From: a virus
Lineage: Duplodnaviria > Caudoviricetes
Virus record (IMG/VR): IMGVR_UViG_3300032030_000038
Coordinates: 1 to 64,000 of that record
Reading direction: 5' to 3' (one strand)
DNA: 64,000 nt
The position numbers and the translations under genes are program-made. This document shows positions 6,288 to 63,561 of this stretch, one piece after another. Within the stretch, counting starts at the first letter, position 1. Every line of letters begins with the position of its first letter. Under the pieces are notes generated by a model, which was not told where the DNA came from, made no database searches, and worked only from the letters and a program-made list of their open reading frames with translations.

Positions 6288-6552
6288 TGCATTTGACTTT
6301 CTTGAGTTTGGTTTTAGTTTGTACCGCAGAGGAGTCTGTGACAAACGAATCAAAAATAACTATCATTTGGATGAAACTTCCGAAATTCATGGTTATACCA
6401 AGAAAGAGGCGTCTACTTTGTTAGGGTTATCGGAAAGACAATTCGACAGACGTATTAAAAATGGTGAACTGCCTGCTGGTAAGAAAGTTAGAAATTATAC
6501 AACTTTGTTTTGGAATAAAGATCTTATAGATAAGATGTCTAGATTGAAGTAA
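6259..6552 (+). CDS. helix-turn-helix DNA-binding protein (excisionase/AlpA-like winged HTH)
   Basis: YTKKEASTLLGLSERQFDRRIKNGELPAG...LFWNKDLID pattern. Confidence 0.75.
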   Translation: MSDLRTFLLNAFDFLEFGFSLYRRGVCDKRIKNNYHLDETSEIHGYTKKEASTLLGLSERQFDRRIKNGELPAGKKVRNYTTLFWNKDLIDKMSRLK

Positions 6553-6586
6553 CTCATAATTATTTGGTTTTTAGTTTGTTATTATG

Positions 6587-6621
6587 AAGCGATGACTGTA
6601 ATTTGCAGCCATCGCTTTTTT
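6587..6621 (+). terminator. intrinsic terminator-like hairpin after the HTH gene
   Basis: AAGCGATG(6587-6594)...CATCGCTT(6610-6617) with further inner pairing, followed by a T-run. Confidence 0.65.
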
Positions 6622-6633
6622 ATTATACCTTTG
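6602..6633 (+). promoter_or_regulatory. Bacteroidota sigma-A type promoter (-33 TTTG, -7 TAnnTTTG)
   Basis: TTTG 6602-6605, 20-nt spacer, TACCTTTG 6626-6633; about 50 nt upstream of ATG 6685. Confidence 0.75.
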
Positions 6634-6684
6634 CCATACAGAATTCTGGTAAACTATATTGATTAATTTTAAACTTTCAAAAAA

Positions 6685-7614
6685 ATGTCTGAAACAAAAA
6701 CTTATGTTTTTCCCGAAAATGGTGGCTCCGATAACGGTCTTATCGCTTTGTTAGCTCCGATGCTTCAGAACAGGGGTATCGATCCGTCTGTTCTTTATGC
6801 TTTGAATAACAACAACAATGGTGGTTTATTCGGTGGCAATGGTATGTGGGGTGGCCTTATCGCCCTGATAGTTATCGCCGGTCTGTTTGGCGGTAACGGT
6901 GGTTTCTTCGGAAACAACAATAACTCAAGTACTGAACGTGATATGATTATGAGTGCTATTCAAAGAAACGGCTCCGACCTTTCCCAGCTTGCTGCTTCCC
7001 TTAACACGACTACTTCCCAGGTGCAGAATGGTATAAACAATCTTGCCACTGCTATGGCTACTCTGAGTGGTCAAAACGGCCTTAGCGCACAGCAAATCAT
7101 TAACTCTATCCAGAGTGGCAACCAAGGTATAATCAGCCAGCTGGCAAGCTGTTGCTGCGATACCCGTAATGCTATCACCACCCAGGGTTATGAAAACCGT
7201 ATTGCCAATCTTGAACAAACCAATGTTCTCGGTAGCAAGATGGATATGAATACCAATGCTCTTGCTGCTCAGATTGCAGCCCAGACTACTGACATCAACA
7301 ATCATTTCTGTGCCCTTGAAACCCGTGAGCTGCAGAACAAGATTTCCGCTTTGCAAGATGCCAACACTGCTCTGAAGAGTCAGATTGACAATGCTGCCCA
7401 GACTGCTGCCATCCAGGCTTATCAGGCTCAAATGATCGCTCCTATCAATGCTGCTTTGTCTTCCATGCAGAATGAGCTTACCACTATCAAGGGTCAGCTC
7501 CCTGCCACTGTGACTGTTCCCAGCAACCAAGGTGTGTATCTTCCTGCCGGTGTGGCTTATGCTTCTGGCTTGTATGGTTATGGTTATGGTTACAATAACT
7601 CTCTTTGGGGATAG
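6685..7614 (+). CDS. Gly/Asn-rich TM + coiled-coil protein with a CCC motif (function unknown)
   Basis: GLFGGNGMWGGLIALIVIAGLFGG hydrophobic segment, Q/N-rich heptads, SCCCDTR, Tyr/Gly-rich tail; codon use richer in G/C than the flanks. Confidence 0.85.
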   Translation: MSETKTYVFPENGGSDNGLIALLAPMLQNRGIDPSVLYALNNNNNGGLFGGNGMWGGLIALIVIAGLFGGNGGFFGNNNNSSTERDMIMSAIQRNGSDLSQLAASLNTTTSQVQNGINNLATAMATLSGQNGLSAQQIINSIQSGNQGIISQLASCCCDTRNAITTQGYENRIANLEQTNVLGSKMDMNTNALAAQIAAQTTDINNHFCALETRELQNKISALQDANTALKSQIDNAAQTAAIQAYQAQMIAPINAALSSMQNELTTIKGQLPATVTVPSNQGVYLPAGVAYASGLYGYGYGYNNSLWG

Positions 7615-52213: not shown

Positions 52214-52675
52214 TCATAGATTATCAGTTAATATCATATTTACACATTCCTTAACTTGTTTTTGATTATGTGGTTCCATAAAAACTATATTTTTATCAAC
52301 CTTTTTTGATAACACATCTTGACAATATTTAAGGAACATTTTTTTCTTTAGAGGATAGGAATCATTTGGTTTCCCTTTTGTTTCTATAAAAATCCAATTG
52401 TTTTTATACTTTACCATAAAATCAGGGGTATATGTAATATCCCTGATTTTATTGCAGTAATGTAAAAGATTATAACCAGAACCCCTCTTCTTCGGTGTTA
52501 TTATTTTAACACGGTCTGGAATAAATCCAGATAAAAGAGTGACTTTTATTGGTTCATATTTAGGAGATAGTCCAACTTCTTTCAATTGTTGATAACAATA
52601 TCCTTCAAGTTTTGATTTGAATTTTATGTTATCAATAACAATCGATTGCGCATTTTTTACCTTTTTATTACTCAT
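52214..52675 (-). CDS. T7 endonuclease I-like Holliday junction resolvase
   Basis: FKSKLE, YTPDF and FIETKG motifs. Confidence 0.8.
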   Translation of the reverse strand: MSNKKVKNAQSIVIDNIKFKSKLEGYCYQQLKEVGLSPKYEPIKVTLLSGFIPDRVKIITPKKRGSGYNLLHYCNKIRDITYTPDFMVKYKNNWIFIETKGKPNDSYPLKKKMFLKYCQDVLSKKVDKNIVFMEPHNQKQVKECVNMILTDNL

Positions 52676-52678
52676 AGG

Positions 52679-54007
52679 CTACTTTATAAATTTTGATATA
52701 CAAATCAAATCATCCAGACCTGATTCAGCACCTATATAATCATGTAATAATTCCTGTTTTTGCTTTAGAGTTTCCAAGTCTCTCAATGCTCTGAACATAG
52801 AACACCTTTTTACATGAGGTGCTTCATAACAATAAGCAACATCAATCACATCATAAAGAGAGTCACCCATATCACTATATAAAGCCGTATTCAATTCCGT
52901 ATAGAAATTTTCAATTGGCAAATCTTTTAATCTACAATAAATAGATTCCGCTATTTTAATCATTCCTGTCAGAATGTACAACCAAATAGTTATTTTATTA
53001 AAATTTCTGGTCGGACTTAAAAAGCGAAATTCAACAGTTTTATGTTTCTTATAAAACAAAAGATTTATAAAATTGACCCAATGATATCTTGATGATACAT
53101 TCCACTTTCTCGTTCTTGAAGAATCATTTGGATGATTGGCTGTCAAATCAATCTTTGAGATATCATTTTCATTTATATAGAAATCTTCATTACTGATATA
53201 GTAATTATACATTTCAGATATATTTGAAAAATCCAAAAGTTTTTTACAATAATCCTTTTTACTCTTTTTGAATTTTGAAGTATTAAATGCATACTTTGGA
53301 ATGACAGAAACAATTGCATCTTCAAATTTTTTACATACCTTATATAATGTAAATATGAATCTTATATCATTAGGCACTTTTCCAAAATGAATATGCAACG
53401 AACATTCTTTATCAAAACTTGTATACTTTTTAAGCAATTTCAATTGATTTTTCAGAATACTCAAACCATAAGTCTTCCCTAATACAATAGATGAATATTC
53501 AAATCCTGAAATTGACCCATCTCTTAAAGGAATAAGTCCGTACTTATAGCATAAATGTTCTGGAATCATACCACTGCTCGTTTCAAACTCAAAACCAAAA
53601 GAATATTTCAATAGTGATTGAAGCTTATCATTAATCTCCCTGTCCTTTTCAGTATAAAGATTGAATCTTGTTAATAAATTATTGCAAGAATATTCCAAAT
53701 TAAAAGTTTTGTATTGACAACGACCTCTTTCTTTTAAACATCTATAAACTACAAGGGATTTATTATTTACATCTCCATATATATAAAAATAAACACCATT
53801 GTTTTTATTATAAAACAAATTTTCTTTATATTTTATTGATGTAATATCAGTCATCATATCTGCTATAAAGTGTTCAGGCGTTTCTTTATTACTTGAAACA
53901 TAAAAAATTTGCATATACCCTATCTTATTATAAGCTACATCCACTCTTTTAGCTTCATATTCATTTGTATTTATCAATAAATCCTCATTAAGCAATAATA
54001 CTCTCAT
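52679..54007 (-). CDS. putative amidoligase (glutamine synthetase/glutamate-cysteine ligase fold)
   Basis: FGFEFET, RDGSI.GFEY, CSLHIH, RYHWVN and TVEFR motifs. Confidence 0.8.
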   Translation of the reverse strand: MRVLLLNEDLLINTNEYEAKRVDVAYNKIGYMQIFYVSSNKETPEHFIADMMTDITSIKYKENLFYNKNNGVYFYIYGDVNNKSLVVYRCLKERGRCQYKTFNLEYSCNNLLTRFNLYTEKDREINDKLQSLLKYSFGFEFETSSGMIPEHLCYKYGLIPLRDGSISGFEYSSIVLGKTYGLSILKNQLKLLKKYTSFDKECSLHIHFGKVPNDIRFIFTLYKVCKKFEDAIVSVIPKYAFNTSKFKKSKKDYCKKLLDFSNISEMYNYYISNEDFYINENDISKIDLTANHPNDSSRTRKWNVSSRYHWVNFINLLFYKKHKTVEFRFLSPTRNFNKITIWLYILTGMIKIAESIYCRLKDLPIENFYTELNTALYSDMGDSLYDVIDVAYCYEAPHVKRCSMFRALRDLETLKQKQELLHDYIGAESGLDDLICISKFIK

Positions 54008-55607
54008 ATACTTTATTAATTAATGTTTGTAATTTCATTTTATCATAAATATCATAATTATTCAAATACTTTGCAAATGAATCTTTATAAAATTCCTTTG
54101 CCAATTCTATACTAAACTGCTTCTTAACATCCTTGGTGGATAGCATACCGTTTTTTATATACGATTTAATAAAAGAGTCCGGGGATTGCAAAGGCATTAT
54201 GAATTTATAATTATTTATCACTTTGTTTTTTGCTGATATAAAAGTGCTTGTTTTAGTATCGAAGTAAGGCATAGTATTAAAATAATTACTTTTTCCAGAC
54301 ATAGTATCAAGAATATCATAAGGATAACAATCATAATATTCACTAATTAAATCAAGAGCCACGAGTATTTTAGGATGATATAATAAGTTTCCATTTACGA
54401 AAGCATAAAAATTCTTTACTGAAAAATTATTATTTTGATTTATCTTAAGTCCTGATTTTGACAAACTGTATATACCATCGGCAGGTAAATCCCCATCCAT
54501 ATAAATACATCCGTCAAAATAAACTCTATCACAATCAAGTGTTGTATCATCGGGAGAATGTGTCTTTTTTAAATATTGAATAGCTTCCAAAGTACACATA
54601 TTACTAAGTTCATTAGGAACTTTTACTGGCAACTCATCTAAAAACAAACTAGGGTGTGACTCAACTAATTCGTTTGAAGACTCTTTATTTGTTTCTACCG
54701 TTTTGTTAGTAGTACTTACAGTACCCCAATCATAATCATCAATATCATAATCATTATAATAAGGATAAGAAGGATTGTATACTAAAGGGAGTTCAGGATC
54801 TTTTTTAGTGCTATTATAAGTGCTAGTATAAGTACTTGAAGTAGAAATTTCAATTTGTACAAGATTAGAACGATCATACTCTTGAACTTTATATAATTGA
54901 TATCCTTCTATCATATAAAGGGTATTCGTTTCAATAGAAACAAATCCTTTATTATTCAAATATACATTATTATACCTTTCAAGATGTTCTTTTAAAGAAC
55001 TGAACCAATAACCATTAGTATCTTTTAACAAAAACAGAGGTCTTTCTTCATCAGTATTTGAAGTTTTGTACTTTTTTGACGCTCCTTTAAAAATATGAAC
55101 TACAGGTTTTCTTTCTTTATTTTGCCTGTAATCAACTGTAACAAAAGCGCCAGTACCTGTATATTCCGAGAGTACATCATACCCACAAAAATATATTATA
55201 TAAGCCATTACTTGACTATCAGTATACCCCTCTGCATTAGTAAGATACTTATCACGCAAATCTTCATAATTAGAAATGGTTCCATTATGAATCAATACAA
55301 AATCAACCTCATCGTTATCATTTGTAATAACTACAGGCTGAGCATTTTCCAATGAAGTTACACCTATAGATGTTTTTCTGTCATGACCAATTATAATATG
55401 GGCTTTTTTAGTTTTATTAAACAACTTGCTTGTTTTATAAAAACTATCAAATTTTTTCTTGTCATCAACCCCATATTCCACATTACCATCTATAAACAAT
55501 CCGCATGAATCTCCTCCTCTAGTGTCATTATGTATTCCTAAATTACAAAGCAGTAATTTATTAAATTCAGTTCTTTCTTTTCCTATAAATCCAAATAAAC
55601 CACACAT
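53988..55607 (-). CDS. class II (Ntn) glutamine amidotransferase with a long C-terminal extension
   Basis: MCGLFG N-terminal nucleophile, RGGDSCG, GHDR, HNGTISN, TDSQ. Confidence 0.88.
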   Translation of the reverse strand: MCGLFGFIGKERTEFNKLLLCNLGIHNDTRGGDSCGLFIDGNVEYGVDDKKKFDSFYKTSKLFNKTKKAHIIIGHDRKTSIGVTSLENAQPVVITNDNDEVDFVLIHNGTISNYEDLRDKYLTNAEGYTDSQVMAYIIYFCGYDVLSEYTGTGAFVTVDYRQNKERKPVVHIFKGASKKYKTSNTDEERPLFLLKDTNGYWFSSLKEHLERYNNVYLNNKGFVSIETNTLYMIEGYQLYKVQEYDRSNLVQIEISTSSTYTSTYNSTKKDPELPLVYNPSYPYYNDYDIDDYDWGTVSTTNKTVETNKESSNELVESHPSLFLDELPVKVPNELSNMCTLEAIQYLKKTHSPDDTTLDCDRVYFDGCIYMDGDLPADGIYSLSKSGLKINQNNNFSVKNFYAFVNGNLLYHPKILVALDLISEYYDCYPYDILDTMSGKSNYFNTMPYFDTKTSTFISAKNKVINNYKFIMPLQSPDSFIKSYIKNGMLSTKDVKKQFSIELAKEFYKDSFAKYLNNYDIYDKMKLQTLINKVYESIIA

Positions 55608-55609
55608 AT

Positions 55610-56407
55610 TTATATTAAATTAAATTCATTGATTAATTCTATTGCTTGTTTAGCATTTGATTTATTAATTATACTCACTATTTTTTGGTAAGGTGGCAGT
55701 TGTTTTCCTTTTAAAAATGCTTCAATTGCAAGACGTACTCTTTTTTGTACCCATCTTACAGTTTTTTCATCTTGAAGAAAAGCTCCGGATAACACTCTCC
55801 ACTCCACTCCCCAACGTTGAAATCTGAAACAACCAGCCTTTCCATACAATGTCCGTCTGTTTTTATCCTTATCTAATATAATGGAAGGAATGCCTACATA
55901 AGCATCAAGATATTTTATAATCTCAAGACTTGTTTCAATCATAGGATTATCATACCCTATATGAATATGAAAACCACTACTTCTAAAATTAGGAGCAATT
56001 AATTCAGGTTTTTTATTTTGCTTTTGATTATATGCATTATAATCAGGATCACAACCAAATAAACAAGCCTGTTCATTATTAAGATATTTTTCAGGGATGA
56101 ATTGACTTGCCGAGGGTTTTAATATTAGATGAGATTGTTCTTTTTCAAGATATTCATTAATATAGTTCTTCATAGACAGAATATCAACAATGAAATCATC
56201 GTTTTCAAATAATTTACTTGCAGGAATATTGAATTCTGCAAGAACATTATCAGTTTGCATTGCAAATCCCTCACCTAATTCATCGACTTGATACGGAATT
56301 TCTTTTGTTCCGGGGATATAACCTATTGCTGAAGCAAATTCATTTTCTTCAGTATTGAATACAAAACATTCGGGATCGGCTCCTATTGTTATATTTTTAA
56401 TTTGCAT
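55610..56407 (-). CDS. phiEco32-like COOH-NH2 ligase (GS-like fold)
   Basis: TIGADPE, DNVLAEFNI, GCDPD, RSSGFHIHIG, RRTLYGKAG, GVEWRVLS. Confidence 0.88.
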   Translation of the reverse strand: MQIKNITIGADPECFVFNTEENEFASAIGYIPGTKEIPYQVDELGEGFAMQTDNVLAEFNIPASKLFENDDFIVDILSMKNYINEYLEKEQSHLILKPSASQFIPEKYLNNEQACLFGCDPDYNAYNQKQNKKPELIAPNFRSSGFHIHIGYDNPMIETSLEIIKYLDAYVGIPSIILDKDKNRRTLYGKAGCFRFQRWGVEWRVLSGAFLQDEKTVRWVQKRVRLAIEAFLKGKQLPPYQKIVSIINKSNAKQAIELINEFNLI

Positions 56408-57002
56408 AGTAGTTAATTATATTATTTATTATTTTTATAAATTTATCATCATTATTCATCCATTCAGGATGTCCCTGAATAGCAAGCATCTTTGTTTTTG
56501 GATACCAAATTACTTCTGGCTCGTAAGGAGGGTTCTCAAGACCGTCTGAATAATAATGATCACTTCTTGACTCGGTAGACCAAGCCAATACATCATAATT
56601 TTCATTAGGTAGATTAAACGGATAACACATTTGATGATGACATGAAGTAACCATACAAGTATCACCGTTTTTAAATGTTATTTCATGCTCTCCAAAATGT
56701 CCTGTAACATCTTGAATAAGTTTACCTCCGTTATAAGCGGTAATCATTTGAGCACCTCTGCAAATGCCAATAATAAATTTATTTTCTTCATGGGCTTTAC
56801 CGAGTAAAGTCCATTGAATATAATCCAAATGTTGGTTTATTCCCCTTGTTGCCACATTTTTACTATTATATAAACTCGGGGAAATATCAGCACCACCCGG
56901 TAAAATTACAAAACTTGAATCATTGAATTCATTACTTCTTACAGTATCCTTTATAAAACTGTATCTATTACTTGAAAAATAATACTTCATTATTCTATGC
57001 AA
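56397..57002 (-). CDS. class I glutamine amidotransferase / peptidase C26-like gamma-glutamyl hydrolase
   Basis: PGGADISP, GICRGAQ, HHQ and QGHPE triad motifs. Confidence 0.88.
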   Translation of the reverse strand: MHRIMKYYFSSNRYSFIKDTVRSNEFNDSSFVILPGGADISPSLYNSKNVATRGINQHLDYIQWTLLGKAHEENKFIIGICRGAQMITAYNGGKLIQDVTGHFGEHEITFKNGDTCMVTSCHHQMCYPFNLPNENYDVLAWSTESRSDHYYSDGLENPPYEPEVIWYPKTKMLAIQGHPEWMNNDDKFIKIINNIINYYAN

Positions 57003-57847
57003 TTTGAATCCTTATATTCTTTTAATTTTTTATTAATATAATAACTTAAATAATGTACATAAGCATCAAAAACTTTTTCATAAGAATCATATTTATCAAA
57101 TTTATTTTCAATATTTCGTTTTATAGATCTGTTTAATTGAATATCAGTTAGTCTGTCAACTGAAAAAAGATTCCTATTTATACTATTACAAAATATATGA
57201 TAATTCATTCGTTCTAAAATTTCATTAAGACAATTCGGGTCAAAACGATGATGGGAATCAAAACAAATTCTTCTGGGATCATTATTTAAAAATAAATCAT
57301 CACCCATACTCCACATATACATATTATCAATAAGAAAAACCAACTCAAGTAAACTTAAATTATATTTGTTTGATTTCCAAATATTATAAGCAATTTTTAA
57401 TGTTACAGACAATAAAAATCTGTAAAATCTTCTACACATATTTAATATAAGTAGAATTTGTGGTCTGGTTGCTTCAGTAAATATTAAATATAATTTAATA
57501 AAGTCATCGTGTTCTTCTATTGAATAATCCATAAAAGGAAAATTCAATTTTAAATAATTAAGAATTTCAGTTATTTCATCTATAGAAAAATTTAGTTTAT
57601 TATCTTTATAATATGTTGCGTTATAACCTTCATTATCGATTTGAAAATTTTTATAAATCTTTAAAATTACTGTGCCACTGTTTTTATTAAAAGGTAAAAA
57701 TCCACGTCCTCTCATCAATGCTCCAAAGCATATATAACCATTTTCCGGAACTTCAAATTCTACTGATGAATAAATATTAGCAGCACTCCAAGTCAAAAAT
57801 TTTATTTTATTATTTGTATTTCCAATTTTAATATTATTAGTTCTCAT
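56990..57847 (-). CDS. hypothetical protein embedded in the ligase operon
   Basis: 285-aa ORF overlapping both the ATP-grasp and class I GATase genes. Confidence 0.7.
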   Translation of the reverse strand: MRTNNIKIGNTNNKIKFLTWSAANIYSSVEFEVPENGYICFGALMRGRGFLPFNKNSGTVILKIYKNFQIDNEGYNATYYKDNKLNFSIDEITEILNYLKLNFPFMDYSIEEHDDFIKLYLIFTEATRPQILLILNMCRRFYRFLLSVTLKIAYNIWKSNKYNLSLLELVFLIDNMYMWSMGDDLFLNNDPRRICFDSHHRFDPNCLNEILERMNYHIFCNSINRNLFSVDRLTDIQLNRSIKRNIENKFDKYDSYEKVFDAYVHYLSYYINKKLKEYKDSNCIE

Positions 57848-58610
57848 TGCTTACAATTTTTTTTAATTCGTTAATATATTTAGGAGCACTTTCCTCACCA
57901 AGTGCAGGTGCTGAATTGGTTTCAAGAATAATAAAATCAGGATGTTCTTGTTTATTACTTTGAACTTTTACATCAACACAACCTATTTCCAAACCTACAG
58001 CAGCAATTGCCTTCTGGCATTCAGCTACAATCTCATCCCAATTTACAGGCTTGTCAAACATTTCATTATCTTCTCTAATCCACACAGTATTTATATGATG
58101 TCTATGCCATCTTTCAGTTGCATCGTTTTTGAGCATCTTTCTATTAGCATGAAAACACCCGAATTTATCGACATGCAATCTATATTCACGAACGTATTTA
58201 TGATATTTTTCAATAATATAATTATTAAGATTGCTATTATGTGAGTTAATAAATTCAGTCATTTCTTCAGCATTTTGTATATAATATATACCTTTGCCTT
58301 TTGAAGAATGAATATGTTTAATAATCAAAGGATAATTCTCATTGAATTCATCCGTGTTATCAAATGTCCACCACTGTGCAGTTTTAACATTGTGTTTATC
58401 AAATGCACGTTTCATAAGATATTTGTCATTTGAGGTTTTACACGCTTCTACCGTGTTGATTTCCCTTATTAATTCGGGATGTTTACAATGTTTAAACACT
58501 TCATTTGTCGGAGTAAAACTGCCTAATCTATATACAGTAGGCCTGGTTACTTCAATTTGGTTTCTTAATAAATTTGCCGAATGATTACGGCTTCTTACTT
58601 TTAAAAACAT
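57837..58610 (-). CDS. ATP-grasp ligase (RimK/YheCD-like)
   Basis: DKYLMK, PLIIK, HSSKGKG, IIEKY, EYRLHV, GCVDV, LETNSAP. Confidence 0.88.
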   Translation of the reverse strand: MFLKVRSRNHSANLLRNQIEVTRPTVYRLGSFTPTNEVFKHCKHPELIREINTVEACKTSNDKYLMKRAFDKHNVKTAQWWTFDNTDEFNENYPLIIKHIHSSKGKGIYYIQNAEEMTEFINSHNSNLNNYIIEKYHKYVREYRLHVDKFGCFHANRKMLKNDATERWHRHHINTVWIREDNEMFDKPVNWDEIVAECQKAIAAVGLEIGCVDVKVQSNKQEHPDFIILETNSAPALGEESAPKYINELKKIVSNEN

Positions 58611-58614
58611 AGTT

Positions 58615-59577
58615 TTAATTAAATAAGTTATTAAAATATTCTATAAATTTTTTTCTTTTATAAGTTTTAAAAAAGTCACTTGGATCTTTTACACCGAGCG
58701 TATTATCTATTTCTGTATAAACTAAATCATATTTCTTGGAAAGTTCCTTGCCAAATTTTTTACCTGTTTCATCATTATCAAGCAATACATAAACAGTTTT
58801 GAATCTTTCTTTTATTTGATTTATAATCTTGTCTTTTGGAAAGTAAGTCTCACCTTGAAGACAAGTTGCCGGAATACCTATATTGGCCCACAAACACAAA
58901 GCATCCTTTCTTGATGAGGTTATAATAAGTTTATTTCCAGAGGCTGGTAACTGACGCCATAAATCCCACACAGACTTATCATGGCTGCTCATCCATTTGC
59001 ATCTTTTACTATAAGGTTGATAAATTTTAAATGTTGTTTTGTTGTCTTTGAATTCCGCATATGCATAAGCATACTTTTCAGCAGGTATATCCAATTCATT
59101 ATTGTCTTTGTTTATAAAAATGTCTTTTATAGGATATATATTACCAAAAACAAGCCATTCTTTTGAAATACCATACTTATTCCAAAATTCAAAGTCATAA
59201 TCTTGCCAGTCTCTTATTGAAATATTTATACCAATATTATTATTGTTTCTTTTAATTGGTCTTGTAACTTTTATTGTTTTACCAGGCTTGAAATTAAATT
59301 CCTGACCTATTTTCAATAAAACTGTATTATAGTCACAATTGAATTTTTTTTTGAGAAGTCCATAAATATCCCAACATTCCTGTGTGGCAAAATCTTTGAA
59401 CAATAATTTACCAGACTTATTATAAAATATTGAAAATGAAGGATTTTTATCTTTTCTAAAAGGTGAATTTATTACACATGGAATATGATTTATATTACCA
59501 AAAAAGTGAGTGAAGATTTCTTCTTCACTCACTTTAATGTCATCAATACTGGCTATTGGTTTAGAAAGGGAGATCAT
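58615..59577 (-). CDS. dnaG: DNA primase (crAss-type DnaG/TOPRIM)
   Basis: SPFRKDKNPSF, FKDFA, KIYQP, ITSSRKD, LDND, KDPSD. Confidence 0.85.
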   Translation of the reverse strand: MISLSKPIASIDDIKVSEEEIFTHFFGNINHIPCVINSPFRKDKNPSFSIFYNKSGKLLFKDFATQECWDIYGLLKKKFNCDYNTVLLKIGQEFNFKPGKTIKVTRPIKRNNNNIGINISIRDWQDYDFEFWNKYGISKEWLVFGNIYPIKDIFINKDNNELDIPAEKYAYAYAEFKDNKTTFKIYQPYSKRCKWMSSHDKSVWDLWRQLPASGNKLIITSSRKDALCLWANIGIPATCLQGETYFPKDKIINQIKERFKTVYVLLDNDETGKKFGKELSKKYDLVYTEIDNTLGVKDPSDFFKTYKRKKFIEYFNNLFN

Positions 59578-60481
59578 TCAAGTCACTCAAATCATTACTG
59601 CTTGTTTCAGGAATTGTATCAGGAATAGGAGAATCGTTGGGAGTAACTACAGACTTTTCAGGAATATATTCATGAATAATCATAGCACTATATTCAACGT
59701 TTGCCATACCACCAGATTTCTTGTAATCTTCAATGTTCTTCTTATAGAAATTGGTGTATCCGTTGTTATTATTACGCATAAAATCTCTGGAAAAGATTGT
59801 TTGATATCTTCTTCCCTCAGAAGTGGTTTGCACACCAAACAACACCTTGATTTTATACACAACATTTTCCTTTGTTTCCTTTTCCTTTGCAGCTACAATC
59901 AATCCTTTGATTTCCTCCAACTTTCCAGACATAATATCTTCCCAATTAAGCTGAATGTCACAATTTTCTGCATCATTCACAGGAACAAATGTCTGTGCAT
60001 TGTTGTCCCATCTTGTTCTGTCCTCAATACCAGCCCAATATTTGATAAACTTTGTAAGTTCAACTTCTCCACGCTTTGCAGGACGATAATCTCCAAACAT
60101 CTTTGTCTTTGGAGGCAATGCTTTTGTCTGATACTGTTCTTTTGTTACCCAAGAAGATTCACCAAAATTGTCGATAACTTGAAACTTTGTTTTGTCTCTG
60201 TTTACATTAACTTCATTGGTACAGAAGAAATTAACATTCGAAATAATATCCACTTTATTATCATTATCAGTGGTTTGAACATAAATGGTAACTCTTGTTT
60301 GATTGACTTTCTTTCCATCAACTTCAATTTGAGTCTTATAAACAGGCTCATCATTTACATTAATACCAATTTCAGCAAGTTGCGCCTTATTGGGGTTTAC
60401 ACACAAGACTTTTACAGGAGCGAATCCAACATAGCGTTTGAATGATTGAGTTTCTTCTACTTGTTTACCTAATTTAATCAT
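59561..60481 (-). CDS. putative single-stranded DNA-binding protein
   Basis: RYVG...VNP N-terminus, acidic DLPF C-terminus, adjacent to primase. Confidence 0.6.
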   Translation of the reverse strand: MIKLGKQVEETQSFKRYVGFAPVKVLCVNPNKAQLAEIGINVNDEPVYKTQIEVDGKKVNQTRVTIYVQTTDNDNKVDIISNVNFFCTNEVNVNRDKTKFQVIDNFGESSWVTKEQYQTKALPPKTKMFGDYRPAKRGEVELTKFIKYWAGIEDRTRWDNNAQTFVPVNDAENCDIQLNWEDIMSGKLEEIKGLIVAAKEKETKENVVYKIKVLFGVQTTSEGRRYQTIFSRDFMRNNNNGYTNFYKKNIEDYKKSGGMANVEYSAMIIHEYIPEKSVVTPNDSPIPDTIPETSSNDLSDLNDLPF

Positions 60482-60602: not shown

Positions 60603-61160
60603 TTATTGTAAATTGTCAACCCACGCATTGCTTAATTCATTCGCATTTTCTTTGTTTTCCATGAAATCGAGTAATGCTGAATTAAATTCTGACATACCAT
60701 TTTTTACAGTATTTTTGAAAATAAAATATTTACATATTTGCATATAAGTATAATCACCATTAAAAGATTGTATATATCTTTTGGTAGCATCTAAAACCTC
60801 ATCAAAATTAAGTTGTATATTTAATTTTATTTGAAGTTTGTCAAGCCTTTGAACAATTTCAGCATGACTCCCTCGCCATGAATGATTTGTACCTGGTTTT
60901 AAACCAAGCGGAAACTGACTCTGAATAGCCTCTGCTATATTATTTATATTATTTTTTATCGGTTTAGGGGTCATATCTACCATTGACAAGATAACTTCTT
61001 GTACTTCAAGATTTTTAAAAGTTCCATCAGGATTTATATCTTCCGAAAACTTATTTAGAAAGTCTTGATAAGAAGCACATCTGGCAAGATTGTATAAATA
61101 ATTAAAATCAGTGTCTGTAATATCAGAACCAAAAATGCTTAAAAATTCTTGTTTAGTCAT
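60603..61160 (-). CDS. crAss replication-associated protein (possible initiator/helicase loader)
   Basis: FP.G.KPG...WRG and ATKRYI..F...YTYMQ..KYFI.K motifs; replication context. Confidence 0.5.
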   Translation of the reverse strand: MTKQEFLSIFGSDITDTDFNYLYNLARCASYQDFLNKFSEDINPDGTFKNLEVQEVILSMVDMTPKPIKNNINNIAEAIQSQFPLGLKPGTNHSWRGSHAEIVQRLDKLQIKLNIQLNFDEVLDATKRYIQSFNGDYTYMQICKYFIFKNTVKNGMSEFNSALLDFMENKENANELSNAWVDNLQ

Positions 61161-61162
61161 AT

Positions 61163-61543
61163 TTACTTTACAAAATAATATTTTATATCACGAATTCCTT
61201 TATACTCAAGCCAATTTTGAATATGTTCAAAATTTTCATATAATTTCGATGGAATATTGTCAATTATATAAATATAAGAACCATCCTCCAATTTAACTCT
61301 TGTATAAAATGCAGGATAGCCTTCATAACGCTCTACCTCTTTAAAGACTTCATCAGACACTCCATATGTTTCCACATAAACAGGATTTGTTTTTGTATCC
61401 TTTAAAAGTGCTGGAAACTCTCCAAAATCAACCATTTTGTAAGGAAGGTCAATAACTCCTTTACGAATTAATTTCGAATCTTTAAGAATGTGATGAGCAT
61501 GAGCTCCCTCTAATAAAGAGCCGTAAGTTGTGATTTTTTCCAT
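61163..61543 (-). CDS. gamma-glutamylcyclotransferase (GGCT/AIG2-like)
   Basis: YGSLLEG, FPAL, VETY and EGYP..YTR motifs. Confidence 0.85.
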   Translation of the reverse strand: MEKITTYGSLLEGAHAHHILKDSKLIRKGVIDLPYKMVDFGEFPALLKDTKTNPVYVETYGVSDEVFKEVERYEGYPAFYTRVKLEDGSYIYIIDNIPSKLYENFEHIQNWLEYKGIRDIKYYFVK

Positions 61544-62817: not shown

Positions 62818-63519
62818 TCACTCACAAATTATAAGTTCTTTAGCATACGGAAGACTCTCGATCCAAGCACAGAACTCGCCCCAGTCTTCTTTGAGTTTGT
62901 GGTTCTTGCGCTGTTTGTAGATGGTGGCAAGCTGTTCGTAGTTAGTAGAGCAGTGCACCCAGAGCTCAGCGCCCATCGGGCAGTTGGAGATGATGCGCAT
63001 GTACAGGTCATAGAGCACATCGTCGGAAGTGTTCAGACTGAGCGAGTTTTGCGCATCTCGTTCGCTGAAGTATTGCTCGAGTAACACATAATAGTCTTTC
63101 CTCAGATCGATAAACACATCGAACTGGTCTAGGTTCACGAACATCAGATTGTACAGTTGTATCATGCTGTTCATCAGCTTGATCTCAGTCACAGAAACAT
63201 ACCGGTTGCAGCATTTCGAGAAGTCCATCTTAGTTATGCAGTGCATCATTGATGTGCTGCTCACATATTGGAGAAAGTGATAGCGCTGGACCTGCTTTGT
63301 GAAGTACTGCGGGTACTTCAGATCAAAGGTGACCAGGATACCTGTTCTGAAATTTGTATGACCTGTACCACCACCAAGAGATGCAAGATGCTTACATCTC
63401 ACTACTGCTTTTATAACATTTTCATTCACAACTTCTTGAGGCTCGACAAGCATAGCATTTCCAGAAGCAACCATTGCTTCTTCAAGATTATAAACATGTG
63501 TGTTTTTAATTTCTACCAT
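62818..63519 (-). CDS. divergent ThyX-like (flavin-dependent thymidylate synthase fold) protein
   Basis: GHTNF..GI.V.FD, QVQRYH..VSSTSMMH, PMG, TNY..L..IY.QR..HKL.E.W..FC..I..LP pattern; canonical RHR-x7-S absent. Confidence 0.55.
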   Translation of the reverse strand: MVEIKNTHVYNLEEAMVASGNAMLVEPQEVVNENVIKAVVRCKHLASLGGGTGHTNFRTGILVTFDLKYPQYFTKQVQRYHFLQYVSSTSMMHCITKMDFSKCCNRYVSVTEIKLMNSMIQLYNLMFVNLDQFDVFIDLRKDYYVLLEQYFSERDAQNSLSLNTSDDVLYDLYMRIISNCPMGAELWVHCSTNYEQLATIYKQRKNHKLKEDWGEFCAWIESLPYAKELIICE

Positions 63520-63561
63520 ATCCAAAATATATTACTATGTTTTTTGATTGTTTTTTCATAT

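Follow-up and report, generated by a model that had tools for sequence, protein, structure and literature searches.

A phiEco32-type amidoligase module in a crAss-like phage genome, with a conserved protein family tied to its C26 glutaminase

The virus record IMGVR_UViG_3300032030_000038, a 99.4-kb crAss-like phage genome judged 98% complete, carries six co-directional minus-strand genes for ligases, glutaminases and an orphan protein between its primase and resolvase genes, which raises the question of what such a set of enzymes makes inside a replication block. The cluster lies at 52679-58610 of the stretch analysed here, the first 64,000 nucleotides of the record (the window). We favour, with a probability of about 0.55, the reading that it is a crAss-like copy of the amidoligase module of phages of the phiEco32/LUZ24 type, and that it would encode a cytoplasmic amide-bond pathway using ATP and glutamine and yielding an amidated or gamma-glutamyl product. 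A sequence-only reading of the window had already placed six open reading frames (ORFs) here, on this strand and between primase and resolvase, and had assigned domains to five of them; the ORFs were confirmed on the sequence and the five domain calls agreed with Pfam and PHROG matches.

Starting at the primase, the genes encode an ATP-grasp ligase (AG), a 285-aa orphan protein, a class I/C26 glutamine amidotransferase (GATase; G1), a COOH-NH2 ligase (CN), an N-terminal nucleophile (Ntn) GATase (G2) and an amidoligase (AL). The ATP-grasp carboxylate-amine ligase (57837..58610, minus strand, 257 aa) is RimK/PurD-like, matching PF02222 (3e-07) and phrog_2599 (8.8e-29); its PHROG grouping is that of RimK-type S6 modifiers, and its nearest solved sequence is the PurD-like 4dim (5e-06), a glycinamide ribonucleotide (GAR)-synthetase-like ATP-grasp protein. 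The COOH-NH2 ligase (55610..56407, minus strand, 265 aa) belongs to the phiEco32-type family PF14395 (7e-09; 35.7 bits, cut-off 25; phrog_3815 6e-66) and is 42% identical to a protein of crAss-like phage cr108_1 across 100% of its length, while the amidoligase (52679..54007, minus strand, 442 aa) is an Amidoligase_2 protein (PF12224 3e-05; 24.4 bits, cut-off 22; phrog_2443 4e-16). Both belong to families with a glutamine synthetase (GS)-like fold, and a solved structure was detectable by sequence for neither of them.

Conservation was judged on family alignments from 83 loci (collected as described below), taking columns that are at least 90% conserved. The window copies keep every such column in the AG, G1, CN, G2 and AL families, in line with the catalytic motifs that had been recognised in the sequence beforehand. 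The conserved residues are K63, E142, R144, H146, K158, D213, E230 and N232 in the ATP-grasp ligase; E13, E58, H147-x-H149, R184, R195, E202 and R204 in the COOH-NH2 ligase; and E140, E142, D163, E170, H205-x-H207, E326 and R328 in the amidoligase.

The two glutaminases likewise retain their active-site motifs, namely Cys-His-Glu in class I and Cys1 with the N-G oxyanion in class II. The class I GATase, of the Peptidase C26 gamma-glutamyl hydrolase type (56397..57002, minus strand, 201 aa from TTG; Peptidase_C26 2.4e-13, GATase 2e-06, phrog_7218 6e-34), has a GICRGAQ nucleophile (GxCRGxQ in the family), an HHQ motif and the His/Glu of QGHPE, all of them invariant in the family. An ATG at 56990 forms TAATG with the stop codon of the orphan gene, a typical translational-coupling junction (56988-57002), and the enzyme therefore probably starts at this ATG, four codons past the listed TTG at 57002, giving 197 aa. 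The class II (Ntn) GATase (53988..55607, minus strand, 539 aa; GATase_6/7 7.8e-12) starts with MCGLFG and keeps C2, R30, N108-G109 (HNG) and D130 (DSQ). It comprises a glutaminase domain (approximately residues 1-250), a low-complexity linker and a small conserved C-terminal module. Its C-terminal half gave no Pfam match in the window copy or in eight relatives, no match among PDB sequences and no usable match in the ESM Atlas; because this part matches nothing known, the protein appears to be a glutaminase lacking a synthase domain of its own. Two variations of this gene were seen in other phages. In some non-crAss loci (L045, L046, L051, L052, L059 and L067) the amidoligase lies between two Ntn-GATase-like genes, the second of which has diverged much further (L045:14758-16350, GATase_4 at only 0.002). 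In the record of phage TL (L092, 9505-10606) RefSeq marks the Ntn GATase only as two misc_features, the N-terminal and the C-terminal part of LUZ24 gp19, which is why we consider it split or frameshifted there.

The genes are tightly packed. The ATP-grasp gene begins 4 nt past the primase gene, the cluster junctions are overlaps of 11-20 nt or gaps of 2-4 nt, and the Ntn GATase gene overlaps the amidoligase gene by 20 nt. No terminator-like sites were seen on the minus strand between 51.8 and 62 kb, and a promoter scan was uninformative (83 sites, 69 expected). Hydropathy analysis of the module proteins showed no transmembrane segments or signal peptides.

A seventh enzyme, a gamma-glutamyl(amine) cyclotransferase of the AIG2/GGACT-like type (GGCT; 61163..61543, minus strand, 126 aa; PF06094 3e-12, phrog_2520 3.5e-15), is encoded on the same strand 2.5 kb, or three replication genes, upstream of the cluster. 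It keeps the conserved YG and E74 and differs from its family at one non-catalytic conserved position (T6, consensus V). In Cellulophaga phage phi14:2 and many other loci the GGCT gene stands directly between primase and ATP-grasp gene, in phage TL it adjoins the ATP-grasp gene and in phiEco32 it is near it; judged by family and gene order, GGCT is a member of the module despite its displaced position here. The genes that separate it from the rest include two at 59561-60481 (306 aa) and 60603-61160 (185 aa) with no Pfam or PHROG match, which are conserved primase neighbours in the replication block (in 20 and 31 related loci, respectively).

The link to phiEco32-type clusters that had been proposed from the sequence held when we inspected phiEco32 (gp77-gp88) and phage TL (gp13-gp21); PF14395 is itself named after phiEco32, and the cluster type goes back to Iyer et al. 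2009, as cited in PMC10580990. Both phages share with the window a PF14395 ligase, a PF12224 amidoligase beside an Ntn GATase, an ATP-grasp ligase and a GGCT, and in all three the module genes are co-directional and lie beside primase or helicase genes. Each of these features was found in the window: PF14395, PF12224 adjoining the Ntn GATase, and ATP-grasp and GGCT genes on the same strand near the primase, with the conserved residues kept. The order differs, being X-X-CN-x-AL-G2-AG-GGCT-primase in the podophages and primase-AG-orphan-G1-CN-G2-AL in the window. Moreover, searches with hidden Markov models (HMMs) did not find the C26 GATase or the orphan family in phiEco32 or TL, which carry other uncharacterised proteins instead; of these, TL gp13/14/16 and phiEco32 gp85/87/88 gave zero Pfam matches, and hhalign comparison with all cluster families revealed no relation.

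Closer counterparts occur within the Crassvirales. Matching synteny is annotated in RefSeq for cr108_1 (NC_055878) and phi14:2 (NC_021806), both Steigviridae/Asinivirinae, the shared order being primase, (GGCT), ATP-grasp ligase, orphan-family protein or proteins, C26 GATase, COOH-NH2 ligase, Ntn GATase, amidoligase, and then repair or recombination genes. Relative to the window, cr108_1 carries the orphan as two paralogues in tandem, phi14:2 has neither C26 GATase nor orphan in its annotation or in our gene map, and both carry a uracil-DNA glycosylase (UDG) gene after the amidoligase, which the window does not, in addition to the displacement of GGCT in the window. A UDG gene directly follows the amidoligase in 23 crAss-like-type loci (for example L001:10759-11397 and L002:2785-3495); in the window there is none between amidoligase and resolvase. 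The cluster type itself is therefore already known, from computational description as well as from annotation in reference crAss-like genomes and hundreds of cultured phages.

How constant is the module? A tblastn search with the PF14395 protein returned 316 cultured-phage records, all at or below 60% identity and with cr108_1 as the best, including Pseudomonas phages of the LUZ24/PaP3/TL type and phages of Escherichia, Vibrio and Aeromonas. Bacterial genome collections gave 8 matches, all on contigs of metagenome-assembled genomes (MAGs) and possibly phage, and 14 control genomes gave none; since there were only these eight contigs and no control genome matched, the close relatives of this ligase appear to be essentially a phage family. 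A scan of IMG/VR yielded at least 208 confirmed stretches, from which 80 loci were fetched. Loci were analysed by iterated HMM searches on six-frame ORFs, and reducing redundancy at 80% ligase identity and asking for at least 6 kb on either side left 49 loci. In these, the PF14395 ligase (present in 49/49 by construction) is accompanied in every case by the Ntn GATase and the PF12224 amidoligase (each 49/49), and the last two adjoin each other in all 49, as they do in TL and phiEco32. The C26 GATase was found in 44 loci and adjoins the PF14395 ligase in 31; the ATP-grasp ligase was found in 39, a primase on the same strand within 10 kb in 24, the orphan family in 22 and GGCT in 19. This co-occurrence is far beyond chance. 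The sequence-only reading had named a lack of co-conservation as something that would refute it, and the genes proved to be co-conserved. What is new here is the fixed CN/G2/AL core with its universal G2-AL adjacency.

From these pairings a working scheme can be put forward, in which two glutaminase-ligase pairs (G2-AL and G1-CN) would operate alongside one ATP-grasp step. Glutaminase subunits normally require a synthase partner. Ammonia released from glutamine by the Ntn glutaminase would be handed over to the PF12224 enzyme for use on a carboxylate that this amidoligase would activate with ATP, so that G2 and AL would form a two-part, translationally coupled, glutamine-dependent amidotransferase. 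The PF14395 ligase may work with the C26 GATase, whose role would be to supply ammonia a second time or, on the model of PuuA/PuuD, to act as a gamma-glutamyl hydrolase. In loci that have the orphan protein, it may partner the C26 enzyme as the subunit that sets specificity or serves as acceptor. An amino-acid unit would come from the RimK/PurD-like ATP-grasp ligase, and GGCT would trim or release a gamma-glutamyl group, possibly as another route for removing such groups. The outcome would be an amidated peptide or conjugate of gamma-glutamyl type that exists as a small molecule or is attached as a tag to a macromolecule. The one experimental hint that was found touches the central pair: when a Pseudomonas podophage was subjected to directed evolution, both evolved versions (15 and 30 rounds) carried missense changes in the genes of the amidoligase and of the Ntn GATase, though not at the same positions (PMC11450229), which suggests that the pair matters for phage fitness on the host.

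Several points weigh against this scheme. For neither PF14395 nor PF12224 could sequence searches detect a relative that has been solved or assayed. Neighbouring genes are no proof that ammonia is channelled, and the glutaminase-like enzymes might act as hydrolases of gamma-glutamyl amides instead. Neither the C26 GATase nor the orphan is a core part, because phiEco32 and TL lack both by HMM search, and the ATP-grasp ligase and GGCT were detected in only 39 and 19 of the 49 loci. The earlier proposal of a phage pathway of ligases and glutaminases is thus partly supported: its enzyme set stands, while the gamma-glutamyl or amidated product and the target remain putative. The statement that no product has been identified also stands, as searches of the literature with the family names and "phage" returned genome descriptions and computational papers only, with no experimental product, substrate or phenotype among them. 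Such papers, including PMC10580990, repeat the suggestions of Iyer et al. and call the function still to be explored.

Characterised pathways offer partial likenesses. In Escherichia coli, PuuA is a GS-fold gamma-glutamyl-putrescine synthetase and PuuD a Peptidase C26 gamma-glutamyl-gamma-aminobutyrate (GABA) hydrolase. The window is similar in that it places side by side the genes for a GS-fold carboxylate-amine ligase and for a C26 GATase-like enzyme with a Cys-His-Glu triad and HHQ, but its ligases are of the PF14395 and PF12224 families rather than the GlnA family, and no PuuB/PuuC-like oxidoreductase was seen in or beside the cluster, so that it does not amount to a Puu pathway. Glutathione and gamma-glutamyl cycle enzymes comprise a GCS2/YbdK-type ligase, the ATP-grasp enzyme GshB and GGCT; the same set of folds (GS-like ligase, ATP-grasp ligase, GGCT) is present here, and some annotators name the phage ATP-grasp protein "glutathione synthase", although the window encodes, beyond that set, another GS-like ligase and two glutaminases, no specific resemblance to GshA or GshB was seen, and its nearest solved ATP-grasp proteins are PurD-like. 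MurT/GatD and the Ntn-type AsnB/LtsA are glutamine-dependent amidation systems. They resemble the module in placing a glutaminase (in the window one without a synthase domain of its own) beside an ATP-dependent carboxylate-activating enzyme, but the activating enzymes of the window are GS-like and not of the Mur-ligase or PP-loop type, and their proposed pairing is seen at the level of gene adjacency.

The remaining member, the orphan protein (56990..57847, minus strand, 285 aa), had been listed as an unknown protein. It has indeed no Pfam or PHROG match, but it proved to be a conserved member of the cluster and not an incidental insert. A word-index search returned close relatives only (66-90% identity), and HMMER, run exhaustively over 1.84 billion representatives, gave just seven matches. 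With a profile iterated to include those seven, the family was found in 41 of the 83 loci, at the same position and sometimes as two tandem paralogues; both cr108_1 "hypothetical proteins" belong to it. These two (gp029/gp030) gave no match to the orphan by BLASTP, the homology emerging after profile iteration and in BFVD, where a fold search independently recovered proteins of cr108_1 and of the crAss-like ctelJ1 (E 6e-05 to 2e-04). Identity within the family is only 11-23%. Two residues, Cys40 and Arg139, never vary; Phe41 and Asn83 almost never do, and many members have a His at around position 200. As judged from these profiles, the orphan is a conserved, fast-evolving family that is newly recognised in this analysis.

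Its position ties it to one glutaminase. Where present in the non-redundant set, the orphan gene always adjoins the C26 GATase (22/22), and in two loci the two are fused (L041:7843-9351 and L036:7356-8891, 502 and 511 aa), the C26 domain coming first and the orphan-family domain second, with the C26 triad and the orphan C-F, N-x-C and R-Y motifs all kept. Both loci additionally encode a stand-alone C26 GATase and a stand-alone orphan; a search for longer fusion forms found none. This association of a conserved Cys/Arg family with the C26 glutaminase, extending to fusion in some loci, is likewise new.

Structure prediction gave a fold for the orphan. A first AlphaFold2 (AF2) model built from close homologues only was poor (pLDDT 53), and a deeper alignment gave a model with pLDDT 81 and pTM 0.84, in which an alpha/beta domain at the N terminus is followed by a helical C-terminal region. 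Foldseek comparison of the model with the PDB returned nothing at E<=0.001, hmmsearch of the profile against PDB sequences gave a best E of 0.69, the ESM Atlas gave no usable match, and hhalign found no relation to the other cluster families, fusion proteins excepted. A McsB/guanidino-kinase lead was rejected, as its VIA score (Z 6.3, root-mean-square deviation 4.6, 105 aa aligned) lay in the noise range and had no profile support; another of the best VIA scores, to the GyrA tower (Z approximately 6) falls in the tool's stated noise range as well. The orphan may act as a partner of the C26 enzyme, either as a specificity or acceptor subunit or as an unrecognised enzyme. We regard as speculative the further step that it is a new enzyme or acceptor subunit working with the C26 glutaminase, so that modules of crAss-like and jumbo phages would run three glutamine- or gamma-glutamyl-dependent steps. 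If this were true, the result would be a new amidated gamma-glutamyl metabolite or tag with a part in the conflict between phage and host, directed for instance at a defence system or a host machine.

The pattern of partners bears on a different reading, in which the module would tag a host or phage protein, by adding Glu or a peptide (as RimK does on S6, or PafA/Dop in pupylation) or by amidation, with the accessory proteins picking the target. The enzymes are conserved and the accessories lineage-specific (crAss-like and jumbo contigs have the orphan family, TL and phiEco32 unrelated proteins), a pattern that fits host-specific target recognition. The PHROG placement of the ATP-grasp ligase among RimK-type S6 modifiers points the same way, and Pup ligases are among the GS-fold ligases. 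Protein modification has also been proposed for related phage ligases in papers from the Aravind laboratory (PMC4431377). However, no tag gene or target is evident, RimK is here a PHROG family name only, the nearest solved ATP-grasp proteins being PurD-like, and known tagging systems need no two glutaminases. We consider protein tagging doubtful, though better placed than the two readings that follow.

The module might instead modify a precursor of peptidoglycan or of a surface glycan, for example by amidating the stem peptide or adding an amino acid to it, and thereby block superinfection or alter lysis. Stem-peptide amidation uses pairs of a glutamine amidotransferase and a ligase (MurT/GatD, AsnB/LtsA), and all module proteins are cytoplasmic by hydropathy, the cytoplasm being the site at which such precursors arise. 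The suggestion is attributed to Iyer et al. 2009 in PMC10580990. On the other hand, the module lies in replication blocks and not in lysis or envelope blocks, its carriers infect hosts that differ greatly in envelope (Bacteroidota, Pseudomonadota, cyanobacteria and Planctomycetes), and it has no Mur-ligase or glycosyltransferase partners, which together make a role in the cell wall unlikely. A further argument against that role, from archaeal-virus carriers, was dropped since the "Poseidoniales viruses" paper reports a muramoyl-alanine amidase-like gene and the host assignment is too uncertain.

Hypermodification of DNA, nucleotides or RNA, in which an amino-acid side chain would be attached to a base or amidated on it as a protection against restriction, is improbable, since the genome has no detectable enzyme to provide the base handle: searches of the whole 99.4 kb found no ThyA-type hydroxymethylase (PF00303), ThyX (PF02511), tRNA-guanine transglycosylase (TGT)/DpdA (PF01702) or C5-methyltransferase (PF00145), 5-hydroxymethyldeoxyuridine (5-hmdU) DNA kinase and aGPT-Pplase not being among the families searched. 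A search with PF12851 (Tet/JBP) carries no information, having given zero matches in controls. The absence of known base-modification entry enzymes among those searched is a new observation for this genome. Also against this reading, DNA of phiEco32 and PaP3/LUZ24 is cut by ordinary restriction enzymes. In favour of such a role are the constant location of the cluster near primase, polymerase and nucleotide-metabolism genes and the IMP dehydrogenase (IMPDH)/GMP-reductase-like genes near it in loci L031-L035. In viromes, genes for amidoligases and amidotransferases have been seen together with thymidine-hypermodification genes (Lee et al. 2021; PMC8989533), and decoration of carboxymethyl-cytosine by an ATP-dependent amide ligase has now been described (PMC12783734); this ligase, CmoY, is however an asparagine-synthetase homologue outside the families found here.

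The surroundings of the cluster are those of a crAss-like genome, with plus-strand giant ORFs (1,500-2,400 aa) followed, from approximately 40 kb, by a minus-strand replication block that contains endolysin, phosphoesterase, helicase, Sak4, PolA, ribonucleotide reductase (RNR), PD-(D/E)XK exonuclease, resolvase and primase genes. PolA is only approximately 36% identical to its counterparts in the known Crassvirales IAS virus and crAss001, and the genome therefore represents a divergent crAss-like lineage. G+C content is 0.36-0.44 over positions 1-22000 of the window and 0.27-0.33 across most of 24000-62000, and the GC skew changes sign at approximately 40 kb, the point at which the coding strand switches. 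The cluster is flanked on one side by the Toprim primase (58615-59577, minus strand; phrog_12622 3e-50) and on the other by the DUF1064/endonuclease I-like resolvase (52214-52675, minus strand). Further upstream, a 235-aa ORF at 62818-63525 has phrog_6721 (unknown function) as its sole match, plus a weak UCH_1. In L031-L035 (contigs of approximately 104-149 kb) the IMPDH/GMP-reductase-like gene (PF00478 6e-35) lies at approximately 6347-7423, two genes upstream of the cluster.

Returning to the phiEco32-type amide-bond module, the window itself adds little beyond one more carrier, from a divergent crAss-like lineage, the constant pairing of G2 with AL and a previously unrecognised partner family of the C26 enzyme. 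The module belongs to the more common multi-enzyme "metabolic" cassettes found in virulent phages, and some fifteen years after its prediction a product, substrate or phenotype is still not to be found in the searchable literature. Identification of the product would give a function to PF14395 and PF12224, two uncharacterised enzyme families, and could reveal a new phage strategy, be it a metabolite, a protein tag or a modification of the wall or of nucleic acid.

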